A stretch of 64,000 bases of DNA, taken from the NCBI GenBank assembly GCA_038065315.1, contig JBBTRF010000001.1, positions 33,642 through 97,641 on the forward strand, in the 5' to 3' direction. Positions 4,409 to 53,666 of this stretch are shown in pieces (the first letter of the stretch is position 1; every line of letters begins with the position of its first letter). Position numbers and translations under genes: made by a program. The notes under the pieces are model-generated. The model was given only the letters and a program-made list of their open reading frames with translations. It searched no databases and had not been told where the DNA came from. This DNA comes from Patescibacteria group bacterium (lineage in GTDB: Bacteria > Patescibacteriota > Minisyncoccia > Phycocordibacterales > JBBTRF01).

Positions 4409-6040
4409 GTGGCATTTTTAGGTCAGCACAGTTCTCCACAACCCACGTTTTGGAGACCAACCCTCAACCCCCATACGAAGAATATGCTACTCACAGCTGA
4501 AAGCCTCTCGTCGGCCAAACGGCCGACGCCGGTGGGAAGCATGATTTGCCTCCCGCCACCGCACCAGTTTCTGATGCGTGGTATGCGTGCATTGCCGGAC
4601 GCCTGCAGTTCAGAATGGTTTGCTGAAGTCACTGCCCACGCCCAACTGAAAGGCGACCGTTCACCCGATGTTTTGTTCGGTGGACTCCTCAGTCATTATG
4701 GCCACATCCACGGCCAACATCACCGCGAACCGGCTTGGGTGAGAAAGATTCCGCCAACGGTGGTCCAAGAGATCCGCCGTCGGCACGCCATTAACGGTTC
4801 GGAAGAGACCGTCATCGAGCACTCTGGTGCTGGTGGCGTCCGCTTCTGCGTTCCCCACGGATCTTTGTTCGCCGCATCCGAAGAAGTCTTTGATTTCAGA
4901 CGCCTCGGCGGTATTGCCCAGCTCTCGACTCTGCGTGTCCCGGTCTCGAGCATCCCGTCTCCCAGTGCCCAGGCTCAGCCGATGCGCAAGCGCTTCTCGC
5001 ACACCCGAGTCGCACACTGCCGGCGCGTGGCAGGCTTCATGACGCTCATGGCGTCCAACCTTCTCCATGAGCAGGTTGCTCCGGCGACGGTTTCTGCTGT
5101 CGGCCACGACACTCTGACCGCTGCTGGTGGCGACATGACGCACGCTCTGGATCGTGAAGCATTCGACGAGGATCTGCACTTCGCGAGACTTCTCCAAAGG
5201 CCCGATTTCCAGATATTCCTCAAATGTTGGAATCTTCCCGGCGAGCTCATTGTCTCGACGGTGGCCGGACAGGGTGTGCTTGGCGACATGAACGATGCTG
5301 CCGACAAGCTCGGTTACGTCGGGCTCGATGCCGATCACTACCTAGCTGCGGTGAGAGAAAACTTGCCGCTCTGGTATCCGGATGGCTTCCTGGCTATCGA
5401 GGGGATGATCATTAAACATCCTGAGGTCTGCCGGATTTGGGAGTCTGCCCGGATTCGCGAGGGTCAGTTGGTCTTCGAAGATTCGGCTGGTCTCGCGGCC
5501 TTCCTCCGCCTCCGCATGCTCTTGTTCCGCTGGTTGTATTGCAACCCGATCTGCCTGGCCTGGGAACACGCTCTCGCTGAGTCGTTTCTTCGCCCGATGT
5601 ATGTTTCGGGTTTCGTCACCAGGGAACAACTGTGGTCGCACGACGACCGCTGGCTGTCACTCCAGTTTGATGAATTCCTCGAACGTCGTCCGCGCTTCCG
5701 TCCGGGCCTGCTCGAGGATCTCGAGCCGTTTCCGTTCGGCATCACCTTCGAACAGTATTCGACGCTGGAGGCTGCCCTCATCAGAGCGAGGGCCTTCAAC
5801 GACGATTCGTCCAAGACAGTGGTGGTGGACAAAATGACTCCGGTCACCAAGACCGGTGCGAACCGTTTCCGGGTCGTCGAGGGTGGCAAAGTGAAGAAAT
5901 TCTCCGAAGCCTTCACTCGGCAGACTGCAGAGCTCGAAGCTTTACTCCGTGGGGACCAAGTGGTCTCCGTCGCGATCCTCGACCTGCCAGAGCTTGGCAT
6001 CCCCCCGCGCGTGTGGCCGAAGGTGAAGCTCCGCCATTGA
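4409..6040 (+). CDS. Large hypothetical protein with no recognisable domain (alternative start about 4484)
   Basis: 543-codon open frame in GC-rich DNA with GC3 bias consistent with coding; antisense ORFs look like R/S-rich artefacts; no motif recognised by eye. Confidence 0.5.
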   Translation: MAFLGQHSSPQPTFWRPTLNPHTKNMLLTAESLSSAKRPTPVGSMICLPPPHQFLMRGMRALPDACSSEWFAEVTAHAQLKGDRSPDVLFGGLLSHYGHIHGQHHREPAWVRKIPPTVVQEIRRRHAINGSEETVIEHSGAGGVRFCVPHGSLFAASEEVFDFRRLGGIAQLSTLRVPVSSIPSPSAQAQPMRKRFSHTRVAHCRRVAGFMTLMASNLLHEQVAPATVSAVGHDTLTAAGGDMTHALDREAFDEDLHFARLLQRPDFQIFLKCWNLPGELIVSTVAGQGVLGDMNDAADKLGYVGLDADHYLAAVRENLPLWYPDGFLAIEGMIIKHPEVCRIWESARIREGQLVFEDSAGLAAFLRLRMLLFRWLYCNPICLAWEHALAESFLRPMYVSGFVTREQLWSHDDRWLSLQFDEFLERRPRFRPGLLEDLEPFPFGITFEQYSTLEAALIRARAFNDDSSKTVVVDKMTPVTKTGANRFRVVEGGKVKKFSEAFTRQTAELEALLRGDQVVSVAILDLPELGIPPRVWPKVKLRH

Positions 6041-7943: not shown

Positions 7944-8597
7944 ATGGAAAACCGAAATACAAACACCAATGTTGCGATTGCGGTCGCTCTCGTGGCAGTC
8001 CTCATCGCTTATTTGACTCTTGCGCCAAACAAGGCACCGACCGTGCCGACGCCTATTACTCAAAACACTCAAGCCACTTCAACCGTAACCACCAACACTA
8101 TGCCAACTTCAGCGACCACTCCGACTTCAGCAAAAACCGTCACTATCGAAACCAACAAGGGCACCATTGTCTTTGAGATGTTTCCTTCGGACGCGCCAAA
8201 GACTGTCGAGAATTTTGCGACACTCGCACAGAAGGGCTTTTATGATGGCGTCATCTTCCACCGAGTCATCGACGGTTTCATGATCCAGGGCGGCGATCCG
8301 ACTGGCACTGGTATGGGTGGTCCGGGTTACCAATTTGCAGACGAGCTCAATCCAAGCACCCCTTCATACAAACTCGGCTATCAGAAGGGTATGGTGGCGA
8401 TGGCAAACGCCGGTCCAAACACGAACGGCAGTCAGTTCTTCATCATGCTCAAGGACACTCAGCTCCCTCACAGCTACACTATCTTCGGCCGCGTGATCTC
8501 CGGACAGGATGTTGTCGATGCTATTGGCAAGGTTCAAGTAGGCGCCAATGACAAGCCTGTCGACGCGGTGGTGATGAGGAAGGTGACGGTTAAATAA
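7944..8597 (+). CDS. Cyclophilin-type peptidyl-prolyl cis-trans isomerase with N-terminal TM helix and T/P-rich linker
   Basis: FHRVIDGFMIQGGDPTGTGMGGPGYQFADE and SQFFIM cyclophilin motifs; hydrophobic N-terminus then Thr/Pro-rich spacer. Confidence 0.85.
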   Translation: MENRNTNTNVAIAVALVAVLIAYLTLAPNKAPTVPTPITQNTQATSTVTTNTMPTSATTPTSAKTVTIETNKGTIVFEMFPSDAPKTVENFATLAQKGFYDGVIFHRVIDGFMIQGGDPTGTGMGGPGYQFADELNPSTPSYKLGYQKGMVAMANAGPNTNGSQFFIMLKDTQLPHSYTIFGRVISGQDVVDAIGKVQVGANDKPVDAVVMRKVTVK

Positions 8598-8602
8598 CCG
8601 CC

Positions 8603-9550
8603 ATGGAAACTGCTCCTCAGCAGCCGGCGGTTCTCGATGAGGAGAAAAGCGCTTTTGAGCGAGTCGATTTGAAACAGGTTGCCGTATCAATCAATGAATA
8701 TTTTCCGAATATTAAAACGGAAAATATTGTACCGCTCGGCGAGGGTACCCACAGCTGGACGTTTTTGGTGAACGATGAATACGTATTTCGCTTTGCTCAG
8801 ACACCGGTGGCAGCAGAAAATTTAAAGAGGGAAATGGTAATGCTCCCTATTCTGAAGGAATATGTCACGTTGCCAATACCCGATTTTGAATATGTAGCAC
8901 TCGATATGAAAGGTCTCGGATTCTCCGGATATAAATGTATTCAAGGAGGAGGTTTTTCGCGTCGAGTCATTGCGTCGCTGACTTCAGAAGAGCTGGCCGG
9001 TGTCCAGGCGGATTTGAAAGAATTTTTTGACGAGGTTCATTCCATCCCAATCGAACTTGCGTTGGAAGCCGGGGTGCGAGATGTTGATAGCCGAAAAAGG
9101 GTAGAGAGAGTGAGGAAAAAGGCTCTGCCTGCAATAGCTGATTTATTTACTCAGGACGAAGTTCGTTATTTTGAGAAAGTAGTAGACGATTTTCTTGCTG
9201 ATGAAAGAAACTTCATCTACGAGAAGACCTTTCTTCATGGGGACGTGAATCGTTCCAATCTGCGTTTTGATGAAACAAAAAGAAGGGTATCGGGTGTTAT
9301 CGATTGGGGAGAAATGCAAATCGGTGATCCGCTTTTCGATTTGGTGAGGCCCTATTTTTGGCTCGGTAAGGAATTTGTTGAGCCGATGCTGGCACATCTA
9401 CCCGATGAGGAGTACCATTTTTCCGTAGCAAAGATACATAAAATGGCGGTTTTTCTCAGTCTAGGCGCGATTCACTACATGAAAGATACGTATGGCAAGG
9501 AAGCGGCCATTAAGAGAGTTGAGATTTTGAGAAAGATGAGTAATCTGTAA
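8603..9550 (+). CDS. Phosphotransferase-enzyme-family kinase (APH-like)
   Basis: HGDVNRSNLRF (Brenner motif) and VIDWGEMQIGDPLFD (DxG-like) typical of the APH/choline-kinase fold; AT-richer than flanks. Confidence 0.7.
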   Translation: METAPQQPAVLDEEKSAFERVDLKQVAVSINEYFPNIKTENIVPLGEGTHSWTFLVNDEYVFRFAQTPVAAENLKREMVMLPILKEYVTLPIPDFEYVALDMKGLGFSGYKCIQGGGFSRRVIASLTSEELAGVQADLKEFFDEVHSIPIELALEAGVRDVDSRKRVERVRKKALPAIADLFTQDEVRYFEKVVDDFLADERNFIYEKTFLHGDVNRSNLRFDETKRRVSGVIDWGEMQIGDPLFDLVRPYFWLGKEFVEPMLAHLPDEEYHFSVAKIHKMAVFLSLGAIHYMKDTYGKEAAIKRVEILRKMSNL

Positions 9551-9732
9551 GAGTTAAATACCAAAGAGAGAGGGTTTATTCATGAAATTGCAATCTTTTC
9601 GTAAAGTGCTATAATACTGATGTAACTATGAAAAAGACCCTTGTGCAGGTACGCCTGCATCGGGGGCTTTTTCTTTTAGGCATAAAATATTTTATAAATA
9701 CCCCAACAAATTGATTGTGCTAAAATAGGCAT

Positions 9733-11304
9733 GTGAACCTGAATATTCCGGAATCCGAGACAGTTGAATACAAGGAAACACTTGGAGATATCGAAGATAT
9801 CGCGAAGACTATTGTCGCATTCGCCAATACTAAGGGCGGTTGCATATGTATAGGCGTTGGAGATGACGGCTCTTTGCGTAAAATAGACATAGCAGACTCT
9901 TCTTTTAGAAAGATAAGTGATCTCAATCAGGCTTTTGATCCGCGTCTCCACGACTGCTTCTCCGTCCAAAAAGAAGATGTCGGTGGCTTTTCTATAATAA
10001 AGATAGTCGTCAGAAAAAGCAGTTATCACTGTCACACCTACAAAGGTGTTTGTTATGTGCGTCAGGGCAGTTCTAATCAGAAGCTATCTTCAAAAGAAAT
10101 AGCCGAGAGATACAACTACTCAGCCCGATACGACTGGAGTGCCCAGGTACCAGAAGACTCTTCGCTTGATTGGATTGATAAGAAAGCGCTAGGCTTTTTA
10201 AAAGAAAAGTATTTCGACTTGAAAGGGAATGCTCACAAAACATTAGATGACATACGTTTTTTAAACAGTCTGTCTCTTTTAGGAGATGATAGTGTTCCCA
10301 ACCATACATGTCTTTTGTTTATAGGAAAAGAGGACGTTCGTAGAAGAGTCTTTGGTGGCAGAGACAAAATAACGTGGATGTATAAAGATGATCTTAATGG
10401 TATTGAACAGAGGTTGCCTATTGAAGACGAAAATCTGCCGCTCATTTTTGGTATCCAAAATATTTTAAACAAGATAAATATTTTTAATACAACTCTTCAA
10501 GATGTGGATTTGTTCAGAAATGACGTCTCCCAGTACGATCCTAAAGTTATTGAAGAAATCGTTGTGAATGCTGTGGCTCATAGAGATTGGGGTATTGGCC
10601 TATGGGTAGAGGTGTTGCAAACTCCGGTCAGTCTCGAGGTCAGAAATCCTGGGAAATTTAGAGCAGATCTTAATAAGGTTTTATCAGAAAATAGAAGGCC
10701 CGAGTATCTTAATCCGGCTTTGGCTGACTTTCTGAAAAAAATGCATCTAATGGAAAAAGAGGGTGGTGGATTAAGGAAGGCCTTTGGTATACAAATCAAA
10801 AAAGGTCTAAGTATAAAACTGCGTTCCGATAATGCTAGTGCGAATCCACGAGTAGATTTTTTGTTGAGCGGAAAAGTATCGGACGCGGCTTTTGCCCGCT
10901 TTATGTTTACTGCAAAGGATTTGACACAAGAGCAGGTCGTTATTCTAGATAAAATAAACTCAGGAAAAAACATCTTATTAAGAGATGTTTCCAACGAGGA
11001 ATATTTCTTGGTGCAAAATTTGATCACTAAAACTGGTCGCGGCGGAATTTTCTTAAAAATAAAAGAACACTTACTTCGAAAATCAAATAAATATATAAGT
11101 AATTTCTCAAGCACCCACGCAAGCGTAGACACCTCAAAGGACATCATATTAGACTATGCGAAAAAGAATCTGGAATTCACTACCCAAGAAATTTACGGGA
11201 TTTTGAGCGGAAAATCAAAAGTGTGGGTCAGGGTTGCATTAATGGAAATGATTACGGCGGGGTTTTTAAGAAGGGTCAAAAGGGGCGTCTATACGGTCGC
11301 TTAG
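9733..11304 (+). CDS. Schlafen/AlbA_2 domain plus HATPase_c_4 plus wHTH protein (COG2865-like putative DNA-binding regulator)
   Basis: N-terminus ESETVEYKETL...VAFANTKGGCICIGVGDDGS (AlbA_2); middle EEIVVNAVAHRDW...LEVRNPG (HATPase_c_4); C-terminal winged-helix-like region; AT-rich. Confidence 0.7.
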   Translation: MNLNIPESETVEYKETLGDIEDIAKTIVAFANTKGGCICIGVGDDGSLRKIDIADSSFRKISDLNQAFDPRLHDCFSVQKEDVGGFSIIKIVVRKSSYHCHTYKGVCYVRQGSSNQKLSSKEIAERYNYSARYDWSAQVPEDSSLDWIDKKALGFLKEKYFDLKGNAHKTLDDIRFLNSLSLLGDDSVPNHTCLLFIGKEDVRRRVFGGRDKITWMYKDDLNGIEQRLPIEDENLPLIFGIQNILNKINIFNTTLQDVDLFRNDVSQYDPKVIEEIVVNAVAHRDWGIGLWVEVLQTPVSLEVRNPGKFRADLNKVLSENRRPEYLNPALADFLKKMHLMEKEGGGLRKAFGIQIKKGLSIKLRSDNASANPRVDFLLSGKVSDAAFARFMFTAKDLTQEQVVILDKINSGKNILLRDVSNEEYFLVQNLITKTGRGGIFLKIKEHLLRKSNKYISNFSSTHASVDTSKDIILDYAKKNLEFTTQEIYGILSGKSKVWVRVALMEMITAGFLRRVKRGVYTVA

Positions 11305-11756
11305 TTGGGACGATACAAGGTAATAACTTTTTATCAGGCTATGTATTGTGGCGAATTTTAAAAACAGCTAACAATAACGGTATTTTGAATATAGTTGAAG
11401 TTATCCACAATACAATCTAATTTTAGGTTGAACATGCCCGTATGACAGGTCACTGGTCCAGCCTTGACTTCTTTTCCGAGGTACTGTAAGGTACCCTTTA
11501 CCTAACGCAAGAGTGAGTTACGGCTCGTTTAGGGGGTTTAGAGAGGTTAATCATTGAATCCCAGCTTGCATACATTCTATCGATAAAGAAAACAGAGAGA
11601 AGCCTCATCCGAGGTCTTTTTGCGTTTTGTTTTTGTCGAGAGGGGCGTGCGCATCGTGGTATTCGATGATTGATGAACCATTATTAACGCGACTAGCATT
11701 TTCATACGATGTCAGTACACACAGAGGCACCACGCATTGAAGACCCGGCGGCAAAG

Positions 11757-14700
11757 ATGTCGGTGGGCAAGCGCGAGAAGAAGCACTTCTCAAAATATCG
11801 CGAATCGCTCATCGCGGTTCCGAGTCTCGTAGAGGCGCAGACCAAGTCCTTTCAGTGGCTTGTGGAGAACGGCCTCAAGGAAGTTTTCGGCGAGTTTTCA
11901 TCGATCAAGGATTACGCGAACAAAAAGTTTGAGCTCGACTTCACCGGTTTCAGCCTCGCTGAGCCAAAGTACGACGAGCACTACGCAAAGCACAACAAGC
12001 TGTCGTACGAAGCGACCTTGAAGGCGACCGTTCGTCTCAAGAACAAAATGCTCGGCTCTGTAAAGGAGCAGGAGATCTTCATGGCGGATTTTCCGATCAT
12101 GACCAATCACGGTACCTTCATCATTGGAGGTATCGAGCGAGTCATCGTGCCACAGCTGGCGCGTTCGTTCGGCGTGTTCTTCACTGATCAGGAAGTGAAG
12201 GGGAAGACACTCTTCGGCGCAAAGATTATCCCTGCACGAGGTGCGTGGATTGAAATCGAAACTGATGCAGACGGTTCTCTCTATGTCCGCATCGATCGAA
12301 AGCGCAAGTTCGGCGTCGCATCTCTCTTGCGAGTGCTCGGCGCGCAGACCGACGGCGATATCCAGGCGCTCTTTGCGGGTACCGCTTTCTCAAAGCAGCA
12401 TATTGACGTGTCTTTGGCGAAGGATCATGCGAAGACTATGGATGAAGCGTACGTGGAGATCCACAAGAAGCTCCGAGATGGCGACATGGGTACTGTCGAC
12501 AACGCGAAGGAATTCATCAAGTCTATTTTTAGCGCAGAGCGATACGACCTCCACAAGGTGGGCCGTTTCCGATTCAACAAGCGCTTCGAGAAGAGCATGG
12601 AAGACAAGGCTCTCGAGCGACGCACTATCAACTTGGACGATGTCGTGACAATCATCAAGCATGTCATCTATTTGAACAACACCCCGAACGCAACCGCCGA
12701 TGACATCGATCACCTCGGTTCACGACGAGTGCGCTATGTTGGCGAGCTCATTCAGCAGAAGATCCGAGTTGGTATGTCCCAGATCAAGCGCAACATTCAG
12801 GACCGAATGTCGACTGTTGAGCCAGACATCACTCAGCCTTTGAACTTCATTTCTCCGAAGCCGCTTCAGGCTCGAATCAAGGAATTTTTCACGACCAACC
12901 AGCTGTCACAGTTTATGCAGCAGGAAAACGTGCTCCAGGAGCTCGAACACTTGCGCACCTTGTCTGCGCTCGGACCCGGCGGTCTCACCCGAGAGCGAGC
13001 CGGCTTCGAAGTGCGAGACGTGCATCCTTCTCACTATGGCCGACTCTGTCCGATCCACACTCCTGAAGGTCCCAACATCGGTCTTATCTTGCGCCTCTCA
13101 ACCTACGCGCGCATCAACGACTTCGGTATGATCGAAGCACCGTATGCAGTGGTGAAGAACGGCAAGATCACCAAAGAAGTGCGATACCTCAACGCGCTCG
13201 AAGAAGAGAACTACAACATTTCTCACGCCGCGATCAACTATGACGCGCAGGGTAGCATCACCGACGACGTGGTGGAGGTTCGCAACAACGGTATCCCAAG
13301 CTTCGTGCCAAAGAACAACGTGCACTTCGTGGACGTCGGCACTGGACAGCCGTTCTCGATCGCGACCTCGATGATTCCGTTCGTCAACCATGACGACGCG
13401 AACCGTGCACTCATGGGTTCGAACATGCAGAAGCAGGCCGTGCCTTGTTTGGTACCAGATGCGCCGCTCGTAGCGACGGGTATTGAAGAGGTGGCAGCGC
13501 GAGACTCTGGCCGACTCATCATTGCTGATGAAGACGGTACTATCACCGCAGTTGATTCAACTAAAATCTCTCTCAAGAATGCAAAGGGCAAGGAGAAGAC
13601 CTGGAACCTCGTGGCCTTTTCACGAACCAACGGCTTCACTGCTTTCCACCAGCGACCAATCGTGAACCTCGGACAGAAAGTGAAGAAGGGCGATGTCCTC
13701 GCGGATACGTCTTCTTCCGATAATGGCCAGGTGGCGCTCGGACAGAACATCCTCGTCGGCTTCCTCTCTTGGTCTGGTTCAAACTACGAAGACGCGATCA
13801 TTCTCTCTGAGCGATTGGTGAAGGACAGCAAGTTTACCTCGATCCATATCGAAGAGTTTGTCATCAACGTACGCGACACCAAGCTCGGACCCGAAGTGAC
13901 CACTCCGGATATTCCAAACGTCGGCGAGGCGAAGCTCAAAAACCTCGATGAAGACGGTATTGTCCGCATCGGTGCGGAAGTGCGATCTGGCGACATTCTC
14001 GTCGGCAAGATCACCCCAAAGGGTGAAACCCAGCTTACTCCAGAAGAGCGACTCCTCAAGAGCCTCTTCGGCGAGAAGGCACGAGATGTGAAGGATACAT
14101 CGAAGCGAATGGAAGGCGGCAAGCGAGGTCGTATTATTTCCGTAAAGATCTTCTCACGAGAGAAGGGCGACAAGCTCGAGTCTGGCATCATCAAGCGAAT
14201 CCATGTAGAGATCGCACAGCTCCGAGCCGTATCAGTGGGCGACAAGCTCGCGGGACGACACGGTAACAAGGGTGTTATCTCAAAGGTGCTCCCAGTAGAG
14301 GATATGCCATACATGGCAGACGGTACCCCAATCGATATTATTTTGACACCGCTCGGTGTGCCTTCTCGTATGAACCTCGGACAGATTCTCGAGTTGCACT
14401 TGGGTCTCGCAGCAAACACTTTGAACTACCAGGCGATCGTGCCTCCTTTTGCAGGCGCGACCGACGCGGAGATCAAGAATGAGCTCGTGAAGGCAGGCTT
14501 CGCGGCAGACGGCAAGATGAAGCTGTTTGATGGCCGCACCGGCGAAGCGTTCCAGCAGAATGTCGCAGTCGGCTACATGTACATCTTGAAGTTGCACCAC
14601 ATGGTGGAAGACAAGATCCACATGCGATCTATCGGACCCTACTCGCTCATCACTCAGCAGCCATTGGGTGGAAAGGCTCAGGCCGGCGGACAGCGATTTG

Positions 14701-14942
14701 GAGAAATGGAAGTCTGGGCGCTCCTTGGTCATGGTGCCGCTCACACATTGCGAGAAGTATTGACGATCAAGTCCGACGACATTGTCGGCCGATCCGCAGC
14801 CTTCGACGCTATTGTGAAGGGTCAGCGTATTCAGCAGACCAACGTACCGGCTTCATTTAACGTGCTCTTGAACAACCTTCGAGGTTTGGCACTGGATGTC
14901 GACATGAAACGGGGCGATGGCCTTAATGGGGATACTAAATAA
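11757..14942 (+). CDS. rpoB: DNA-directed RNA polymerase subunit beta
   Basis: Full-length RpoB homology (e.g. GDKLAGRHGNKGVISK, NMQRQAVP-like regions); start chosen at second Met (ORF-track start 11709). Confidence 0.95.
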   Translation: MSVGKREKKHFSKYRESLIAVPSLVEAQTKSFQWLVENGLKEVFGEFSSIKDYANKKFELDFTGFSLAEPKYDEHYAKHNKLSYEATLKATVRLKNKMLGSVKEQEIFMADFPIMTNHGTFIIGGIERVIVPQLARSFGVFFTDQEVKGKTLFGAKIIPARGAWIEIETDADGSLYVRIDRKRKFGVASLLRVLGAQTDGDIQALFAGTAFSKQHIDVSLAKDHAKTMDEAYVEIHKKLRDGDMGTVDNAKEFIKSIFSAERYDLHKVGRFRFNKRFEKSMEDKALERRTINLDDVVTIIKHVIYLNNTPNATADDIDHLGSRRVRYVGELIQQKIRVGMSQIKRNIQDRMSTVEPDITQPLNFISPKPLQARIKEFFTTNQLSQFMQQENVLQELEHLRTLSALGPGGLTRERAGFEVRDVHPSHYGRLCPIHTPEGPNIGLILRLSTYARINDFGMIEAPYAVVKNGKITKEVRYLNALEEENYNISHAAINYDAQGSITDDVVEVRNNGIPSFVPKNNVHFVDVGTGQPFSIATSMIPFVNHDDANRALMGSNMQKQAVPCLVPDAPLVATGIEEVAARDSGRLIIADEDGTITAVDSTKISLKNAKGKEKTWNLVAFSRTNGFTAFHQRPIVNLGQKVKKGDVLADTSSSDNGQVALGQNILVGFLSWSGSNYEDAIILSERLVKDSKFTSIHIEEFVINVRDTKLGPEVTTPDIPNVGEAKLKNLDEDGIVRIGAEVRSGDILVGKITPKGETQLTPEERLLKSLFGEKARDVKDTSKRMEGGKRGRIISVKIFSREKGDKLESGIIKRIHVEIAQLRAVSVGDKLAGRHGNKGVISKVLPVEDMPYMADGTPIDIILTPLGVPSRMNLGQILELHLGLAANTLNYQAIVPPFAGATDAEIKNELVKAGFAADGKMKLFDGRTGEAFQQNVAVGYMYILKLHHMVEDKIHMRSIGPYSLITQQPLGGKAQAGGQRFGEMEVWALLGHGAAHTLREVLTIKSDDIVGRSAAFDAIVKGQRIQQTNVPASFNVLLNNLRGLALDVDMKRGDGLNGDTK

Positions 14943-22003: not shown

Positions 22004-22111
22004 GCAAAACAAAAACACTTTTTTGAGAACAGCATAAATCCCTGCTGGGATTTTGCTTCGCGCTCGGCCCGTCGGCCTGCGCGATGTCTCAAAAAAGTGT
22101 TTTTGTTTTGC
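22004..22111. repeat. 25-bp perfect inverted repeat flanking a 58-bp GC-rich spacer
   Basis: gcaaaacaaaaacacttttttgaga (22004-22028) is the exact reverse complement of tctcaaaaaagtgtttttgttttgc (22087-22111); lies between the rpoD stop and the RhuM gene. Confidence 0.85.
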
Positions 22112-22162
22112 TTGCATTTTTCCTTGCAATTGCCCTCTTCCGAAAATGGTATAATGGGAGGG

Positions 22163-23200
22163 ATGAAAAAGAAACTTGGACAACCAAAGGTGACCCAGAA
22201 GTCTGGTCACGCAGAATTCTTATTGTACACGGCGCCAAATGGCAAGGTGAGCGTGGAGATATTCCTGCACAATGAGACTATCTGGCTAACACAGAAGACG
22301 CTGTCGGAGATTTTTGATTGTTCCGTGGACAATGTTTCACTGCATTTAAAAAATATCTTTGATGACGGAGAACTTTTCCCCGAGGCAGTTATCGAGGAAT
22401 TCTCGATAACTGCCAGTGATGGTAAAAAGTACAAGACGAAACACTACAACCTCGACGCCATCATCGCTGTCGGCTATCGGGTGAACAGTAAAAGAGCGAC
22501 CCATTTTCGTATGTGGGCAACGAGTATACTCAAGGAGTATATGATCAAGGGGTTTGTGATGGATGATCATAGGCTCAAAAATCCAGACGCTACTTTCGGT
22601 GGCGATTATTTCGAAGATCAACTTGCTCGCATTCGAGATATTCGTTCTAGTGAACGTAGGTTCTATCAAAAGATTTCTGATATTTATGCGACTGCTATTG
22701 ATTATGATCCGAACGAAGAATGTACGAGGAAATTTTTCGCTACGGTGCAGAACAAGCTCCATTTTGCCATAAACGGAAAGACGGCCGCAGAGATTGTTCA
22801 TGAAAGGGTAGATAGCACAAAACCGCATCTTGGTTTAACCGCATGGAAACATGGTCCGACTGGTCCGATTCGGAAGATGGACGTGATTGTTGCAAAAAAC
22901 TATCTCGACCATACAGAATTGGATGGGCTCAATCGTATTGTGACAATGTATCTTGATTATGCCGAGTCGCAAGCGAAAAGAGGAGTAGCAATGCACATGA
23001 GAGATTGGGTAGAAAAACTCAACGCCTTTCTGCAGTTCAATGAAAGAGAAATATTGCTTGACAATGGCGTCGTGAGCCACAAGATCGCCGCGGCTTTAGC
23101 TGAAGAAGAATTTGAAAAATATAGGATCGTCCAAGATAGGCTGTATGAAAGCGATTTTGATAAGGAGATGAAGAAGATTTTGGATAAAAAGAAGAAATAG
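22163..23200 (+). CDS. RhuM-family protein (virulence protein RhuM family, PF13310-like)
   Basis: ETIWLTQKTLSEIF...LHLKNIF..GEL....YNLDAIIAVGYRVNS conserved RhuM N-terminal block; AT-rich; TATAAT sits immediately upstream of ATG 22163 (ORF-track start 22097 is probably an over-extension). Confidence 0.7.
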   Translation: MKKKLGQPKVTQKSGHAEFLLYTAPNGKVSVEIFLHNETIWLTQKTLSEIFDCSVDNVSLHLKNIFDDGELFPEAVIEEFSITASDGKKYKTKHYNLDAIIAVGYRVNSKRATHFRMWATSILKEYMIKGFVMDDHRLKNPDATFGGDYFEDQLARIRDIRSSERRFYQKISDIYATAIDYDPNEECTRKFFATVQNKLHFAINGKTAAEIVHERVDSTKPHLGLTAWKHGPTGPIRKMDVIVAKNYLDHTELDGLNRIVTMYLDYAESQAKRGVAMHMRDWVEKLNAFLQFNEREILLDNGVVSHKIAAALAEEEFEKYRIVQDRLYESDFDKEMKKILDKKKK

Positions 23201-45128: not shown

Positions 45129-45673
45129 GCGCCGCTATGGAGGATTTTCATCTTTTCGATTCCGCGATGCACCTGCACGGCCATGGCATTTCTCGATTGT
45201 CCGGTGAGAGTCGCCATTTCTTCGAGTGACAAATCTTGCACAAAGCGCATGCGCATGATTTTCTGGTATTTCACCGGCAAAAGCTGGATCAAGGCGATCG
45301 CTCGCTTGCCGTCCAATGTGTTGATGAGACGCTCAGAGTCGGGTGCTGCGGGCTCAAAACCTTTTTCGAGAAGATCGTCGAGTGACGAGGCTTTATTTTT
45401 TCGATACTGGTCGATAATGAGGTGGTTGAGAACGTGATAGAGGAAAGACTTCATGACATCGATCTTGCCCCCCTTGGCGAGATACTTCCATGTTTTCAAA
45501 AATGTGTCCTGTACTAGGTCTGCTCCGATCTCACGGTCGTGGACTTTAAAGTATGCATGCGAATTAAGGCCTTTCTCAAAGTCGTGGTGGTGCCAGATGC
45601 ACTTCGTAACGCGCCAGGTGTTCAGCAAAACGCGAGTGAGCCTGTCACCGTCAGTTACACACTCGATACTCAA
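45125..45673 (-). CDS. ECF-type sigma-70 family factor
   Basis: Region 2 (DLVQDTFLKTWKYL) and region 4 HTH (LSLEEMATLTGQSRNAMAVQVHRG). Confidence 0.7.
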   Translation of the reverse strand: MSIECVTDGDRLTRVLLNTWRVTKCIWHHHDFEKGLNSHAYFKVHDREIGADLVQDTFLKTWKYLAKGGKIDVMKSFLYHVLNHLIIDQYRKNKASSLDDLLEKGFEPAAPDSERLINTLDGKRAIALIQLLPVKYQKIMRMRFVQDLSLEEMATLTGQSRNAMAVQVHRGIEKMKILHSGA

Positions 45674-46660
45674 GGGAAATTGATCGCGACTCCAATATTG
45701 CCAAGCACAACCGCAGATTGGAAAACGTACAGAAATGAGAAGTATGGCTTTGAGCTAAAGATCCCTTCTTTTTTCGGAGAATTTGCAGATCGGACCGCAC
45801 AAGGTGCACTGTACAGTGCACGAGTCTCGGGAGTCATGTTGCCTGAAGAAAGTGGCCACGCTCTAAGTGTAACTATCGGTGTCTATAATCTCGATAAATA
45901 CTCTTTTGCATCGGGTGATAAAAAAGTGTATGCGTATGATATCAGTTCAAATAAATGCGTTACTTATACCAAAGGGACTGAGGCAAACCTGGTGAATAAG
46001 GATTCGATCAAAATAAATGGTACGGAATGGTGTTATGTTGAAAATAAAACATATCCAGATGTTGGTTCCTATGGTTACTTCTTTGTAAATGAAACTGCGG
46101 ACTTGGTCATCGAAGTTCTGTACACATATGAAATGAATCCAGTATCAGATCCGAGACCAGCGAAGCCAAAGGTTGATTTAAAGGACATTGTTTCTACCTT
46201 TAAATTGAGCCATCCTTCCACTAAAACGACGACTGAAATGAGTGTGAATATTATGGTTCCCAGGGATATGGATGCGTATGAAAAGGCGATGAATGAGTAT
46301 ATCTTCGACGGCAAGCCCAATCCCTCAGGTTCGTGGCCCTTTGTTAAAAAGCAGGTCACTGTCACTGTTCCAAAGGATACAGATATAATGAAGGCGAGTG
46401 TACAGGCTGTTGCCGAGGTAATAGATACACAGGGAGGTTTTCAAGGGTCGCGAGTTGTTTACTTTAAATTGGTGAATGGTACAGCATACATATTACTTGG
46501 AATGGACCTCGATGGATGGGCCGGCGTATCTGTGAGTCTTGCGAAAATTAAACCGTTGGTAGAAAAGACCTTGCTCCAGTTTCCAGGAATCACTTCTGTA
46601 ACATTCAGCCCAGCGCCAGGTGATACCATGGATTCGATTTCACATTCACTCCTCGATTGA
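45539..46660 (+). CDS. Secreted hypothetical protein (start uncertain; overlaps the sigma gene on the opposite strand)
   Basis: ADWKTYRNEKYGFELKIP motif common in small-genome bacterial secreted proteins; C-terminal GerMN-like region. Confidence 0.5.
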   Translation: MDFKVCMRIKAFLKVVVVPDALRNAPGVQQNASEPVTVSYTLDTQGKLIATPILPSTTADWKTYRNEKYGFELKIPSFFGEFADRTAQGALYSARVSGVMLPEESGHALSVTIGVYNLDKYSFASGDKKVYAYDISSNKCVTYTKGTEANLVNKDSIKINGTEWCYVENKTYPDVGSYGYFFVNETADLVIEVLYTYEMNPVSDPRPAKPKVDLKDIVSTFKLSHPSTKTTTEMSVNIMVPRDMDAYEKAMNEYIFDGKPNPSGSWPFVKKQVTVTVPKDTDIMKASVQAVAEVIDTQGGFQGSRVVYFKLVNGTAYILLGMDLDGWAGVSVSLAKIKPLVEKTLLQFPGITSVTFSPAPGDTMDSISHSLLD

Positions 46661-47605: not shown

Positions 47606-47785
47606 AAACAGAGGTTTTGCAAGGTTTTTATTGCACAGGTTTCGGGCCTCGTCGTCAGTGCCCGCCCACTCAATTTTGATGAAATTTCTATCGAAAAATA
47701 CGGCGCATATCGCTTTGAGATAAAATCCGTATGAGTTTTTTGCTTGCGTTTTAACAATTGGCTCTTGTATACTATTGCAACAAAG

Positions 47786-48049
47786 ATGATATCAAAAAAT
47801 ACAAAAGAAAATCAGAAAGCACTCATCTACCAGGCGAAAGACGGGGCCATCGAGCTGCGTGGCGATTTTCCCCATGAGACGGTCTGGGCGACGCAGGCGC
47901 AAATCGTCAGGCTATTTAACATTGATCAGTCTGTAGTATCTAGGCATATCAATAACCTTTTCAAGGATGGTGAGATTGAAGAAAAAAGCAATATGCAAAA
48001 AATGCATAATGCAAATTCCGATAAACCAGTGAGTCTTTACTCACTGTAA
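47786..48049 (+). pseudogene. Truncated RhuM-family N-terminal fragment
   Basis: ALIYQAKDGAIELRGDFPHETVWATQAQIVRLF...HINNLFKDGEI aligns with the N-terminus of the full RhuM protein at 22163-23200 but stops after ~88 aa. Confidence 0.6.
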
Positions 48050-52641: not shown

Positions 52642-53484
52642 TTATGTGAAAAAGAAAAGTGTCAAGATCATTATCGAGAAGGCCATTCCACTGATGTATT
52701 TTGTCTTCATAATTTTTTTATAAGCACTCTCGTCTGAAGACACCTTCTTTAATACGGTATATACATATAACCCAACGCAGACTTCCACTAAAAGAGAAAT
52801 CACACTAACAGAATTTGAAATTTTTAAAAAAGAGTATGACAAAAGTAATCCGCCTAAATCAAAAAACGCAATAAAAGAAGTCCTAACCCCTTTCAGGCCG
52901 TATTTAACAGCAAATGTGGTATCCCCACGTTTTTTGTCTGCCTCGATCTGATATAGCTGTGATAACGGATACATACTTAGGACAAGACAGGTGGCACCGA
53001 ATGCTGCTATTAGTAGGTTGTAGTTAAAAATCTGACCACCAAAAGAAATATACCCAAAACCAAAAGAACATACTACCGTTGCTATTCCGATGGCTACGAA
53101 ACTCATAGTGGGGCTGCCTTTCCAGCGGGTATGTGGGCTGCTGTATAGCCAGAAAAATAGGACACTGATTACATAAAGAATGCTAAATACCCAGCCACTC
53201 ACCAAAGCAATAAGAAGACCAGCGCCTTGAAGTCCCCAAGATGCATAGAGCATCCACTTTTTCATTATCGGTGGGTGTTCCAATCCTCCGATTGGGCCAG
53301 TATCCTTGTCGTAGTAGGAATTATATGCAGTGACGCCTCCAAATAAGAGTCCGTGGATTGAGATGAACTGGATCAAAAATTGCAAAATGGTTGTTCTAGG
53401 GGAAAATAAGCCGCCCAGCAAAAATGGCCCTGAGAGAATAAAAAACTGATAATTCAATCTGAGGTGCTTAAGAAAATCTAGCAT
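52642..53484 (-). CDS. UbiA-family prenyltransferase
   Basis: Polytopic membrane protein with NSYYDKDTG Asp-rich motif. Confidence 0.65.
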   Translation of the reverse strand: MLDFLKHLRLNYQFFILSGPFLLGGLFSPRTTILQFLIQFISIHGLLFGGVTAYNSYYDKDTGPIGGLEHPPIMKKWMLYASWGLQGAGLLIALVSGWVFSILYVISVLFFWLYSSPHTRWKGSPTMSFVAIGIATVVCSFGFGYISFGGQIFNYNLLIAAFGATCLVLSMYPLSQLYQIEADKKRGDTTFAVKYGLKGVRTSFIAFFDLGGLLLSYSFLKISNSVSVISLLVEVCVGLYVYTVLKKVSSDESAYKKIMKTKYISGMAFSIMILTLFFFT

Positions 53485-53594
53485 GTTAAAAAGTATAGCA
53501 TTTTGGGATAAGGATTCTGTCAAAGTCGTCTCAAAAGTTCGCAACAAGTTCTATGTACGTCAAACACCTCTTGAAATTCATGGCTTTTAAAATG

Positions 53595-53666
53595 CTCCGG
53601 GAGTTGGGATCGAACCAACGACCAATCGCTTAACAGGCGATTGCTCTACCGCTGAGCTATCCCGGA
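53595..53666 (-). tRNA. tRNA-Asn (GTT anticodon)
   Basis: Reverse complement reads TCCGGGATAGCTCAGCGGTAGAGCAATCGCCTGTTAAGCGATTGGTCGTTGGTTCGATCCCAACTCCCGGAG; cloverleaf with anticodon loop CTGTTAA; 7-bp acceptor stem pairs perfectly. Confidence 0.85.

Follow-up and report, generated by a model that had tools for sequence, protein, structure and literature searches.

A low-GC stretch between a cyclophilin-type PPIase gene and rpoB in a Patescibacteria (Paceibacteria-type) genome carries two intact open reading frames (ORFs) on the same strand, one encoding an APH-family kinase of 315 residues and the other a protein of 523 residues that joins a Schlafen-type nuclease module to a GHKL ATPase module (hereafter the Schlafen gene and protein). 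A preliminary description read the pair as a single horizontally acquired island in which the kinase could act as the other protein's partner, which raises the question of whether the two genes share a history and a task. Here we analysed the window, that is, the whole 64,000-nucleotide stretch of DNA containing this locus, together with related loci. The account that we favour, and regard as probable, is that the low-GC stretch comprises a pair of unrelated accessory genes that arrived on separate occasions at a variable site between trmD and rpoB, and that the Schlafen gene encodes a stand-alone defence nuclease (Table 1).

Table 1 Features of the PPIase–rpoB interval and its flanks, in window positions
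Feature	Position	Strand	Basis or detail
Cyclophilin-type PPIase, left neighbour	7944-8597	+	PF00160, E 1.6e-48
APH(2'')-like small-molecule kinase, 315 aa	8603-9550	+	PF01636, E 1.6e-22
Inserted segment, 1,891 bp	9571-11461	.	blastn and three-way alignment
Promoter-like site TTGCAA-16-TATAAT, upstream TG	9588-9615	+	Consensus match only
Intrinsic-terminator-like hairpin, then UUUUUCUUUU	9630-9677	+	Inverted repeat I1
Schlatpase-HTH protein (Slfn-HisKinase-HTH, COG2865 type), 523 aa, GTG start	9733-11304	+	
SLFN_AlbA_2 nuclease module, aa 1-133	9733-10131	+	PF04326
Conserved middle region, aa 134-249 (DWSAQ...NTTLQD), nuclease–ATPase link	10132-10479	+	Many invariant columns
GHKL (HATPase_c_4) ATPase module, aa ~250-380	10480-10872	+	PF13749
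Two tandem winged-helix domains, aa ~385-445 and ~465-523	10885-11301	+	Secondary structure of AF2 model
rpoB promoter-like site and leader	11462-11708	+	TTGACT 11464-11469, TAAGGT 11486-11491
rpoB, right neighbour and synteny anchor	11709-14942	+	

The shift towards A/T relative to the PPIase and rpoB genes, from which the preliminary description had started, is confirmed: from about 0.52, sliding GC drops to 0.37–0.44 across positions 8600–11500. The PPIase gene stands at the native level (GC 0.52), and GC and GC3 are 0.443 and 0.44 for the kinase gene, 0.394 and 0.389 for the Schlafen gene, and 0.52–0.55 and 0.60–0.69 for the flanking genes. When the window's 58 non-overlapping ORFs are ranked, the lowest GC3 (z −2.3) belongs to the Schlafen gene, which also shares the lowest GC (z −2.6), and the kinase gene comes seventh from the bottom in GC (z −1.6); the GC minimum over all 1,572-bp segments of the whole stretch falls at position 9851. 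The gene arrangement is no assembly artefact, because at least six contigs, assembled independently from different Hainich groundwater samples, show the identical order PPIase–kinase–Schlafen–rpoB.

The domain identities proposed at the outset also held, with APH, SLFN_AlbA_2, HATPase_c_4 and the PPIase domain PF00160 all above their Pfam gathering scores and the winged-helix (wHTH) region recovered in the structural model. In the Schlafen protein, PF04326 spans residues 7–118, equivalent to profile positions 1–117 of 118 (E 2.1e-20; 73.9 bits against a cut-off of 25.3). The module contains an acidic residue at position 43/44 and the Ex4ExK motif ESETVEYK (residues 7–14, positions 9751–9774), whose E7, E12 and K14 do not vary among 22 homologues, even in the divergent nuclease cassettes of group B described below. 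PF13749 matches residues 301–353 (E 1.1e-7; 32.2 bits against 26) within a GHKL module whose motifs EExxxNAxxHRDW (residues 274–286, with the N-box E275-x3-N279 and HRDW at 283–286), NPG (residues 305–307) and EKEGGG (residues 341–346) are likewise invariant in homologues. No Pfam model covers the middle region, which was modelled with a pLDDT of 81–92. Each of the two C-terminal wHTH domains forms a helix-helix-helix-strand-strand unit in the model; PADLOC reports a weak AbiEi-like match at residues 468–522 (E 0.003), and PF13338 is precomputed on the homologue P0012. The tandem domains are presumed to act as a nucleic-acid sensor or regulator. Otherwise, PADLOC returned only partial matches to pAgo-associated models, and NCBIfam holds no family for the protein.

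The Schlafen protein was modelled with medium quality (pLDDT 74.8 overall, dropping to about 40 in residues 99–132). With Foldseek, the best full-length fold match is 3lmm (E 6e-20, about 570 aligned columns), the Corynebacterium diphtheriae protein DIP2311, which is also the sole PDB sequence match of the family profile (E 1.6e-11, residues 272–387, GHKL), although its identity to the window protein is only about 17%. The nuclease domain matched SLFN5 (7ppj, 7cux), SLFN12 (7lre), SLFN13 (5yd0), SLFN14 (9nyy) and 2kyy, the N-domain of an NE 'RecG-related' protein, with probability 1.0, as expected of a Schlafen C-lobe-like alpha+beta fold, albeit with E values of only 3e-4 to 3e-2 and a domain pLDDT of about 55–80; both 3lmm and 2kyy are structural-genomics COG2865 proteins. 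The GHKL module matched the catalytic domains of PDK2, PhoQ and VanS.

Domain order and motifs assign the protein to Slfn-HisKinase-HTH, or 'Schlatpase'-HTH, the commonest architecture among known prokaryotic Schlafens (pSlfn; PMC13056530, Nat Microbiol 2026). It shares with these proteins the N-terminal SLFN_AlbA_2 domain bearing Ex4(E/D)xK, which is the catalytic motif of pSlfn (PMC13056530), followed by GHKL and HTH domains, the single-gene format, and, at the level of its subfamily, the tie to defence islands and restriction–modification (R-M) genes. It differs in its Patescibacteria host, its two wHTH domains and its well conserved 115-residue middle region, and in being placed among housekeeping genes, not in a defence island. 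Moreover, defence has been demonstrated there for other architectures, namely the DUF262 and Ig-like fusions, two pSlfn fusions that protect E. coli through tRNA cleavage (PMC13056530). In that survey, a defence gene is found no more than 10 kb away from 69.6% of pSlfn genes; about 30%, for which the authors allow non-immune roles, are not defence-linked (PMC13056530). The Schlafen gene of the window is surrounded by housekeeping genes, and no recognised defence gene is closer to it than 10 kb; a RhuM/PDC-S05 gene (22097–23200), 10.8 kb downstream, is the closest candidate. The SMC-like and UvrD-like neighbours matched only generic PADLOC ATPase/helicase models (mad3, GajB) and were rejected as defence genes, the SMC-like one because it is syntenic across Paceibacteria. 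Within the collection of papers searched, none names both Patescibacteria and Schlafen.

The closest relatives of the Schlafen gene form a subfamily of low-GC Patescibacteria genes (GC 0.31–0.37, in hosts of GC 0.33–0.42), often located inside R-M operons or mobile elements. The recurrence of COG2865 proteins in defence or restriction-linked islands, noted in the preliminary description, was thus borne out. R-M genes contain or adjoin the subfamily gene at six distinct loci, with the orders SNF2–DUF4391–Mtase–gene–Res (L187, L189/L097 and L100), Mod–Res–gene–WYL (L102), EcoRI-MTase–GmrSD/HNH–gene (L098) and an Eco57I/ResIII/T5orf172 context (L011); one further member is flanked by an integrase on one side and a serine recombinase on the other (L188), and another is beside a PemK toxin (L010). 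Two members, that of L186 and that of the window, stand alone in housekeeping contexts. A scan of viral contigs detected only distant COG2865 relatives, none of them of this subfamily.

These contexts could also be taken to mean that the Schlatpase-HTH protein works mainly as a regulator that binds DNA, or as an accessory to R-M systems, orphaned here from its R-M partners, as its two C-terminal wHTH domains and the older annotation 'putative transcriptional regulator / RecG-like' would suggest. At four distinct loci the subfamily gene belongs to a type III-like R-M operon, where it separates the Mod and Res genes or immediately follows them (L097, probably a second copy of L189, is not counted among them), and HisKinase-fused Schlafens tested alone gave no protection against a panel of E. 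coli phages (PMC13056530). We nevertheless consider this role unlikely to be the main one. The Ex4ExK and GHKL motifs are invariant over the 22 homologues, the lone members included, pointing to an enzymatic function that is under selection whether or not R-M neighbours are present, and homologous Schlatpase modules are active tRNases in SLFN-pAgo (bioRxiv 10.64898/2026.05.29.728809). There is still less reason to regard the gene as a selfish or toxin-like passenger, or as a recent arrival heading to decay, of no present benefit to the host. Such a status would suit a single gene without partners in a streamlined CPR genome, and a subfamily with gain-and-loss turnover, as follows from the decayed relic in L104; however, the ORF is intact, no catalytic motif has been lost, at least six contigs, drawn from several samples, carry it in identical form, and its promoter-proximal insertion beside essential genes has been tolerated, making this reading improbable.

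Comparison with relatives delimits the insertion. L013 and L015, whose rpoB genes are 98% identical to that of the window, have the order PPIase–kinase–rpoB, and these two and L014 all retain the kinase gene at the same position and lack the Schlafen gene. The 1,891-bp segment stands in place of 125 bp in the closest relative, L015, to which blastn homology of the window is limited to 8415–9570 and 11462–12200. Its left boundary lies downstream of the kinase stop codon, and a three-way alignment of the window, L013 and L015 resumes exactly at the rpoB −35 box, from which the promoter and leader, about 99% identical in all three, are untouched by the insertion. The Schlafen gene was recently and horizontally acquired as a single-gene insertion; the 1.9-kb segment would have brought it to a site immediately upstream of the rpoB promoter, leaving that promoter undisturbed. 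The donor is best explained as a lower-GC Patescibacteria gene pool, and the non-coding ends of the segment have a GC content of 0.35.

No integrase, transposase, flanking repeat or tRNA target explaining the insertion was found at the locus (the sole tRNA of the window is at 53594), and a search for target-site duplications and terminal inverted repeats around the segment gave only short matches of 70–80% (I5 and I7), at chance level. Nor did a blastn comparison of the inserted segment with every related locus retrieved reveal a common mobile-element backbone, homology being confined to the coding region and one hairpin; a 51-nucleotide match to the terminator hairpin of the insertion, at 86%, lies in the TrmD–rpoB gap of L029. 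Neither the rpoB leader nor the intergenic stretches had an Rfam match, whether at the gathering score or at E ≤ 1. A terminator scan placed a terminator-like hairpin at 11602–11615 in the leader, whose folding is not significantly better than that of shuffled sequence (z −1.56), and we therefore make no claim of a structured RNA. The wider synteny, raised earlier as the question of whether rpoB follows the PPIase gene elsewhere, gave a split answer: the PPIase gene lies upstream of rpoB in L013 and L015, whereas the PPIase, kinase and Schlafen genes are all absent there in 80 other Paceibacteria species, which keep the order TrmD–variable gap (66 bp to 7.1 kb)–rpoB.

Could the Schlafen gene instead be ancestral at this site and deleted in the relatives, with its low GC reflecting gene-specific constraint rather than foreign origin? 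The related lineages number only three, and streamlined genomes commonly delete accessory genes, the L104 relic being a case of decay. This history is nonetheless very improbable, as it requires two independent precise losses, in L015 (kinase 90% identical to the window copy) and in L013 (61%). Furthermore, a GC3 of 0.39, against 0.60–0.69, fits the donor-like pool (0.31–0.37) and not the host, the gene is upstream of rpoB in none of the 80 other Paceibacteria, and its homologues are located at unrelated loci.

Horizontal acquisition, proposed originally for both genes, therefore stands for the Schlafen gene and fails for the kinase gene as a co-acquired companion, because the latter is similarly low in GC (0.443 and 0.456) in L013 and L015, which do not have the Schlafen gene. 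The kinase matches PF01636 at 80.9 bits (cut-off 23.2) and resembles APH(2'') phosphotransferases in its fold, its Brenner motif HGDxxxxN (HGDVNRSN, residues 212–219) and the metal-binding aspartate of the D-W-G motif at residue 234; its best PDB match is 3tdw (E 6e-26, aligned residues 30–293), and its active site is intact. It nevertheless falls outside every named resistance family, because its best NCBIfam match, APH(2'')-IIIa, scores 88.6 bits where the curated cut-off is 625, and all 23 NCBIfam matches are far below the curated cut-offs of the named APH(2'')/Mph families. PADLOC gave no match for the kinase. The hairpin between the two genes, followed by a U-run, has a minimum free energy of −29.1 kcal/mol (z −5.6; none of 200 shuffles is as stable), and the genes are probably separate transcription units divided by this terminator. 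The promoter-like site immediately preceding the hairpin belongs to a class no commoner regionally than in shuffled sequence. Co-occurrence of the two families, suggested as a check, was absent: a tblastn search (E ≤ 1e-3) found a kinase homologue in 0 of 93 loci with Schlafen relatives. The kinase gene is an older accessory gene, common to close relatives, and not a partner of the Schlafen gene. The reading of both genes as one acquired island, in which the kinase would be the partner (for example, as sensor or modifier), had adjacency, shared strand and shared low GC in its favour and is now scarcely credible, given the retention of the kinase gene alone in three relatives, an indel boundary beyond its stop codon, the strong terminator, its absence from the 93 loci and from PADLOC, and subfamily neighbours that are R-M or mobile-element genes and never kinases.

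For the favoured reading, a stand-alone defence nuclease, a mechanism can be proposed by analogy with other Schlafen proteins. In the SLFN-pAgo protein RzAgo, the SLFN–PF13749 'Schlatpase' supradomain binds ATP through E314 and N318, and ATP drives tetramerization, rebuilding the SLFN nuclease (bioRxiv 10.64898/2026.05.29.728809). The window protein has the same SLFN–PF13749 core with the E-x3-N, NPG and glycine-rich motifs, and by motif pattern rather than alignment E275 and N279 are probably equivalent to E314 and N318. Most Schlatpases are small and carry a C-terminal HTH (bioRxiv 10.64898/2026.05.29.728809), as does the window protein. Unlike RzAgo, it has no Argonaute sensor, and the guide- and filament-based control of RzAgo therefore cannot apply; ATP-driven tetramerization and tRNA cleavage are extrapolated to it. 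The protein would most likely be an ATP-gated, oligomerization-activated tRNA nuclease in abortive-infection defence. ATP on the GHKL domain would promote assembly of a dimer or tetramer, in which single-lobe Schlafen domains would pair into an active RNA cleft; a cue, either foreign nucleic acid or a phage protein, may be read by the wHTH domains and the middle region and release the nuclease, which would then cut tRNA anticodon arms and turn translation off, in an abortive-infection type of phage defence. Mammalian SLFN11, SLFN12, SLFN13 and SLFN14, which are tRNA/rRNA endoribonucleases, share the nuclease-lobe fold, the E-x4-E-x-K signature and the proposed outcome of translation shut-off through tRNA cleavage, but in them both lobes of the N-domain belong to one chain and the ATPase is an SF1 helicase, whereas the window protein has a single lobe and a GHKL domain.

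The subfamily falls into two groups that are about 21% identical in the nuclease module and 67% over the rest of the protein. DNA homology of the window gene to group-B genes begins at position 10132, and between the homologues P0007 and P0012 the GHKL-HTH chassis is 88% identical and the nuclease cassette 24%. Across the swap the chassis is 61–88% identical, and both cassettes keep Ex4ExK. Tentatively, SLFN_AlbA_2 may be the exchangeable part, joined by recombination to the GHKL-HTH chassis at a constant point (codon ~134). Such swapping would run counter to the usual arrangement, in which the effector is conserved and the sensor varies, and it provides a concrete hypothesis as to which module faces diversifying pressure. 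If it is true, the Schlafen nuclease itself would be the arms-race interface, for example in evading phage-encoded Schlafen inhibitors or in switching tRNA targets, and ultra-small episymbionts might use single-gene, cassette-shuffled effectors, placed in variable gaps beside core operons, as a main means of defence.

Collectively, our findings correct a tempting inference from gene adjacency, as the neighbouring APH-like kinase is no partner of the Schlafen protein. With the most abundant pSlfn class having no demonstrated function and the motifs here intact, the compact 523-residue protein is a reasonable candidate for testing. The locus provides a clean, datable case of a stand-alone Schlatpase-HTH gene entering a streamlined Patescibacteria genome beside rpoBC, with the sequences before and after the event available.

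A single gene encoding a Schlafen-type protein was acquired beside rpoB in this CPR bacterium. The gene order in the window is SMC-like, RNase R, 518-aa unknown, S16, KH, TrmD, PPIase, APH, Schlafen-type, rpoB, rpoC, dnaG and sigma-70, and at least six contigs, assembled independently from several Hainich groundwater samples, encode identical APH and Schlafen proteins in this order, so their arrangement is not an assembly artefact. The shift towards A/T noted in the preliminary description was confirmed by sliding-window analysis, with GC content falling from about 0.52 to 0.37-0.44 over 8600-11500. The GC and GC3 values are 0.443 and 0.44 for APH and 0.394 and 0.389 for the Schlafen gene, against 0.52-0.55 and 0.60-0.69 for the neighbours; GC3 is lower in the Schlafen gene than in any other of the 58 non-overlapping ORFs of the window (z -2.3), and APH ranks seventh from the bottom in GC (z -1.6). 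The domains named there were also recovered by Pfam, all above the gathering score: PF01636 in APH (E 1.6e-22), and SLFN_AlbA_2 (PF04326, residues 7-118, E 2.1e-20) and HATPase_c_4 (PF13749, residues 301-353, E 1.1e-7) in the Schlafen protein. Of the interpretation built on these observations, a horizontally acquired two-gene island with the kinase as a possible partner, the acquisition of the Schlafen gene stood; the co-acquisition of APH and the partnership did not.

Coordinates of the APH-Schlafen region and of other features discussed in the text
Feature	Position	Strand	Description
518-aa ORF	4484-6040	+	GC 0.588; no Pfam or PADLOC match
PPIase	7944-8597		
APH	8603-9550	+	
Promoter-like site	9588-9615		TTGCAA-16-TATAAT, directly 5' of the hairpin
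Terminator hairpin	9627-9677		51 nt, 3' of APH
Schlafen-type gene	9733-11304	+	
Nuclease cassette	9733-10131		
Remainder of Schlafen gene	10132-11304		
rpoB leader	11462-11708		
Terminator-like hairpin	11602-11615		within the rpoB leader
rpoB	11709-14942		
RhuM-family gene	22097-23200	+	PF13310, E 5e-111; GC 0.427
Low-GC ORF	45539-46660		no Pfam match
Low-GC ORF	47744-48049		MarR-like
UbiA-family gene	52642-53547	-	prenyltransferase; GC 0.394, joint lowest in window
tRNA-Asn	53594-53666	-	only tRNA gene in window

A comparison with two close relatives, obtained from exact-protein look-ups of APH homologues, separated the two genes. The locus L013, with 98% protein identity to the window in both rpoB and rpoC, has the order SMC-RNase R-unknown-S16-KH-TrmD-PPIase-160-aa ORF-APH-rpoB-rpoC-DnaG, and in L015 an APH 90% identical to that of the window is followed by rpoB after 448 bp; the Schlafen gene is absent from both. 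The homology between the window and L015 extends over 8415-9570 and resumes from 11462 (blastn), and therefore 1,891 bp of the window (9571-11461) replaces 125 bp of L015. In a three-way alignment, the point where identity returns coincides with the -35-like TTGAC(A/T) of a promoter-like site, which leads into a roughly 99% conserved rpoB leader. Furthermore, the APH genes of the relatives share the low GC content of the window copy (0.443 and 0.456), and thus the recent insertion comprises the Schlafen gene only; APH has been an accessory gene of this small clade for longer.

An rpoB scan of genome contigs placed this insertion in a wider setting, covering at least 80 Paceibacteria-type species with rpoB 55-77% identical, a set that possibly misses genus-level relatives. 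Among the matches listed, gene order is conserved as SMC-RNase R-S16-KH-TrmD-[gap]-rpoB-rpoC-dnaG, and no PPIase, APH or Schlafen homologue was found 5' of rpoB in 80 species. The TrmD-rpoB gap among the matches listed (about 50 Paceibacteria species, L016-L095) is 66 bp at its shortest and 7.1 kb at its longest and holds a 918-aa Peptidase_S74-domain protein (L053), DUF1015 (L088), an IS200-type transposase (L081), a PaaX-like protein (L041), an NYN-domain protein (L020) and many unknowns. With its differing sizes and miscellaneous cargo, the TrmD-rpoB site is therefore a variable spot in Paceibacteria, which the window lineage filled stepwise with PPIase (of native GC), APH and then the Schlafen gene.

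The leader upstream of rpoB is about 99% identical in the three genomes, against 86-91% for the 5' coding DNA of rpoB. It starts at the -35-like box and contains a terminator-like hairpin with substitutions in the loop only; a variable indel is found directly before the rpoB start codon. Rfam gave no match, and the predicted fold of the region was not significantly more stable than that of shuffled sequences (z -1.56). The region may act as an attenuator or leader, or encode a small RNA.

The APH gene is predicted to encode an intact kinase of APH(2'')-like type: HGDVNRSN (residues 212-219) and DWG (residue 234) are preserved, and 3tdw is the closest PDB match (E 6e-26). It scores far under every curated resistance-family cut-off (88.6 versus 625 bits); resistance-like genes are, according to reviews, numerous in CPR genomes. 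The window APH is just 61% identical to its L013 counterpart (8001-8948), whereas rpoB and rpoC of the same genomes reach 98%, and its GC stays at about 0.44 in all three lineages, which suggests that it was replaced by an allele out of a low-GC pool or evolves very fast. The gap between APH and the Schlafen gene contains a hairpin (-29.1 kcal/mol, z -5.6, a stability reached by none of 200 shuffles) and, after it, UUUUUCUUUU, and the two genes are therefore probably transcribed separately. We rejected the kinase as a partner of the Schlafen protein, given this hairpin, the lack of an APH homologue in all 93 Schlafen-relative loci searched (tblastn, E<=1e-3) and the lack of a PADLOC match for APH. 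Another Hainich MAG, with rpoB 72% identical, carries a copy of the 51-nt hairpin between TrmD and rpoB (L029, 2514-2564; 86% identity).

The window holds other genes of unusual composition. The RhuM-family gene is a candidate for a second single-gene insertion. Flanked by the sigma-70 gene and a UvrD/PD-(D/E)XK helicase-nuclease, it lies 10.8 kb 3' of the Schlafen gene and is a match to PDC-S05, a candidate defence system in PADLOC (E 3e-149). The UbiA-family gene directly adjoins the tRNA gene, and two more ORFs are low in GC (table). The GC-rich 518-aa ORF has a positional orthologue in L013 that is just 56% identical, against 85-98% for the flanking genes, and appears to encode a fast-evolving, lineage-specific protein.

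As judged from its sequence and model, the Schlafen gene product is a stand-alone Schlatpase-HTH prokaryotic Schlafen, a class already known. It has about 26 close homologues at 49-72% identity, with all others below 30% (word-indexed search), and of the 3,955 cluster representatives that an exhaustive HMMER search returned at E<=1e-3, only 33 reached E<=1e-30; its subfamily is thus small within a very large family. In an alignment of 22 members, E7, E12 and K14 (Ex4ExK) are invariant, position 43/44 is acidic throughout, and the GHKL motifs EExxxNAxxHRDW (residues 274-286), NPG (305-307) and EKEGGG (341-346) are invariant; Ex4(E/D)xK is the catalytic motif of prokaryotic Schlafens (PMC13056530). 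The AlphaFold2 model (pLDDT 74.8, pTM 0.58) has an alpha+beta N-terminal domain, well-predicted middle and GHKL regions and two C-terminal winged helices. Foldseek matched the uncharacterised COG2865-type structure 3lmm over the full length (E 6e-20), which is also the only PDB match of the family profile by sequence, together with 2kyy, the N-domains of SLFN5/12/13/14 (probability 1.0) and the GHKL kinase domains of PDK2, PhoQ and VanS. The commonest prokaryotic architectures are Slfn-HisKinase (34%) and Slfn-HisKinase-HTH (19.2%) (PMC13056530), and the SLFN+PF13749 'Schlatpase' supradomain occurs in 58.6% of 103,533 prokaryotic SLFN proteins, mostly small and with the HTH at the C terminus (10.64898/2026.05.29.728809). 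The window protein has every sequence and fold feature of this class.

In an Argonaute fusion, ATP binding (E314/N318) causes tetramerization; the Schlafen nuclease is thereby rebuilt, tRNA is cleaved and abortive infection follows (10.64898/2026.05.29.728809). Cleavage of the tRNA anticodon arm is also the defence of two other Schlafen fusions, with DUF262 and Ig-like domains, whereas the HisKinase fusions assayed in that study gave no protection (PMC13056530). [quoted passage not shown] The analysis itself established the domains, motifs and fold of the protein, the insertion of its gene and the contexts of its relatives.

These contexts are relevant to the main rival, a DNA-binding or restriction-modification accessory role. 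Prokaryotic Schlafen genes lie within 10 kb of a defence gene in 69.6% of cases (PMC13056530). In a recurrent operon, the subfamily gene separates the Mod-like gene of a type III-like system from the Res-like one, as SNF2-DUF4391-Mtase (N6/N4)-[Schlafen gene]-ResIII/RE_endonuc in L187 and L189, in L097, apparently a duplicate of the L189 locus, and in L100, judged by ORF sizes. Other members lie 3' of a Mod-Res pair and 5' of a WYL protein and a 1,590-aa helicase (L102), 3' of an EcoRI-type methylase and a GmrSD/HNH enzyme (L098) or 3' of a NucS-like/T5orf172-ResIII/Eco57I cluster (L011). Elsewhere, the gene is found between a tyrosine integrase with an excisionase-like HTH and a serine recombinase (L188), beside a PemK toxin (L010) or, like the window copy, alone among housekeeping genes (L186). 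Set against this placement and the invariant Ex4ExK motif, we consider the accessory role unlikely. That the gene was ancestral at its site and lost in the relatives, which do lack it, is less likely still: subfamily genes have a GC content of 0.31-0.37 in hosts of 0.33-0.42, so that a low-GC donor pool fits the window's 0.39 copy in its 0.52 host. An internally deleted relic between ABC-F ATPase and RNase R genes on another Patescibacteria contig (L104, 8001-8532), which keeps only residues 1-34, 292-383 and 472-522 at 68-82% identity, is evidence of gene turnover in the subfamily; a non-functional passenger is nevertheless a less likely reading of the window copy, with its motifs preserved.

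The N-terminal 133 residues of the subfamily fall into two types, groups A and B, which are 21% identical to each other, whereas the remaining 390 residues (134-523) are about 67% identical across the types. Two members, P0007 and P0012, share 24% identity in the N-terminal part and 88% in the rest, and at the DNA level the window gene is homologous to group-B genes precisely from codon 134 onwards. These sequence comparisons offer direct evidence for a recombinational exchange of the nuclease cassette within the subfamily, with Ex4ExK kept in both types. Speculatively, such exchange might mean escape from an inhibitor or a switch of target.
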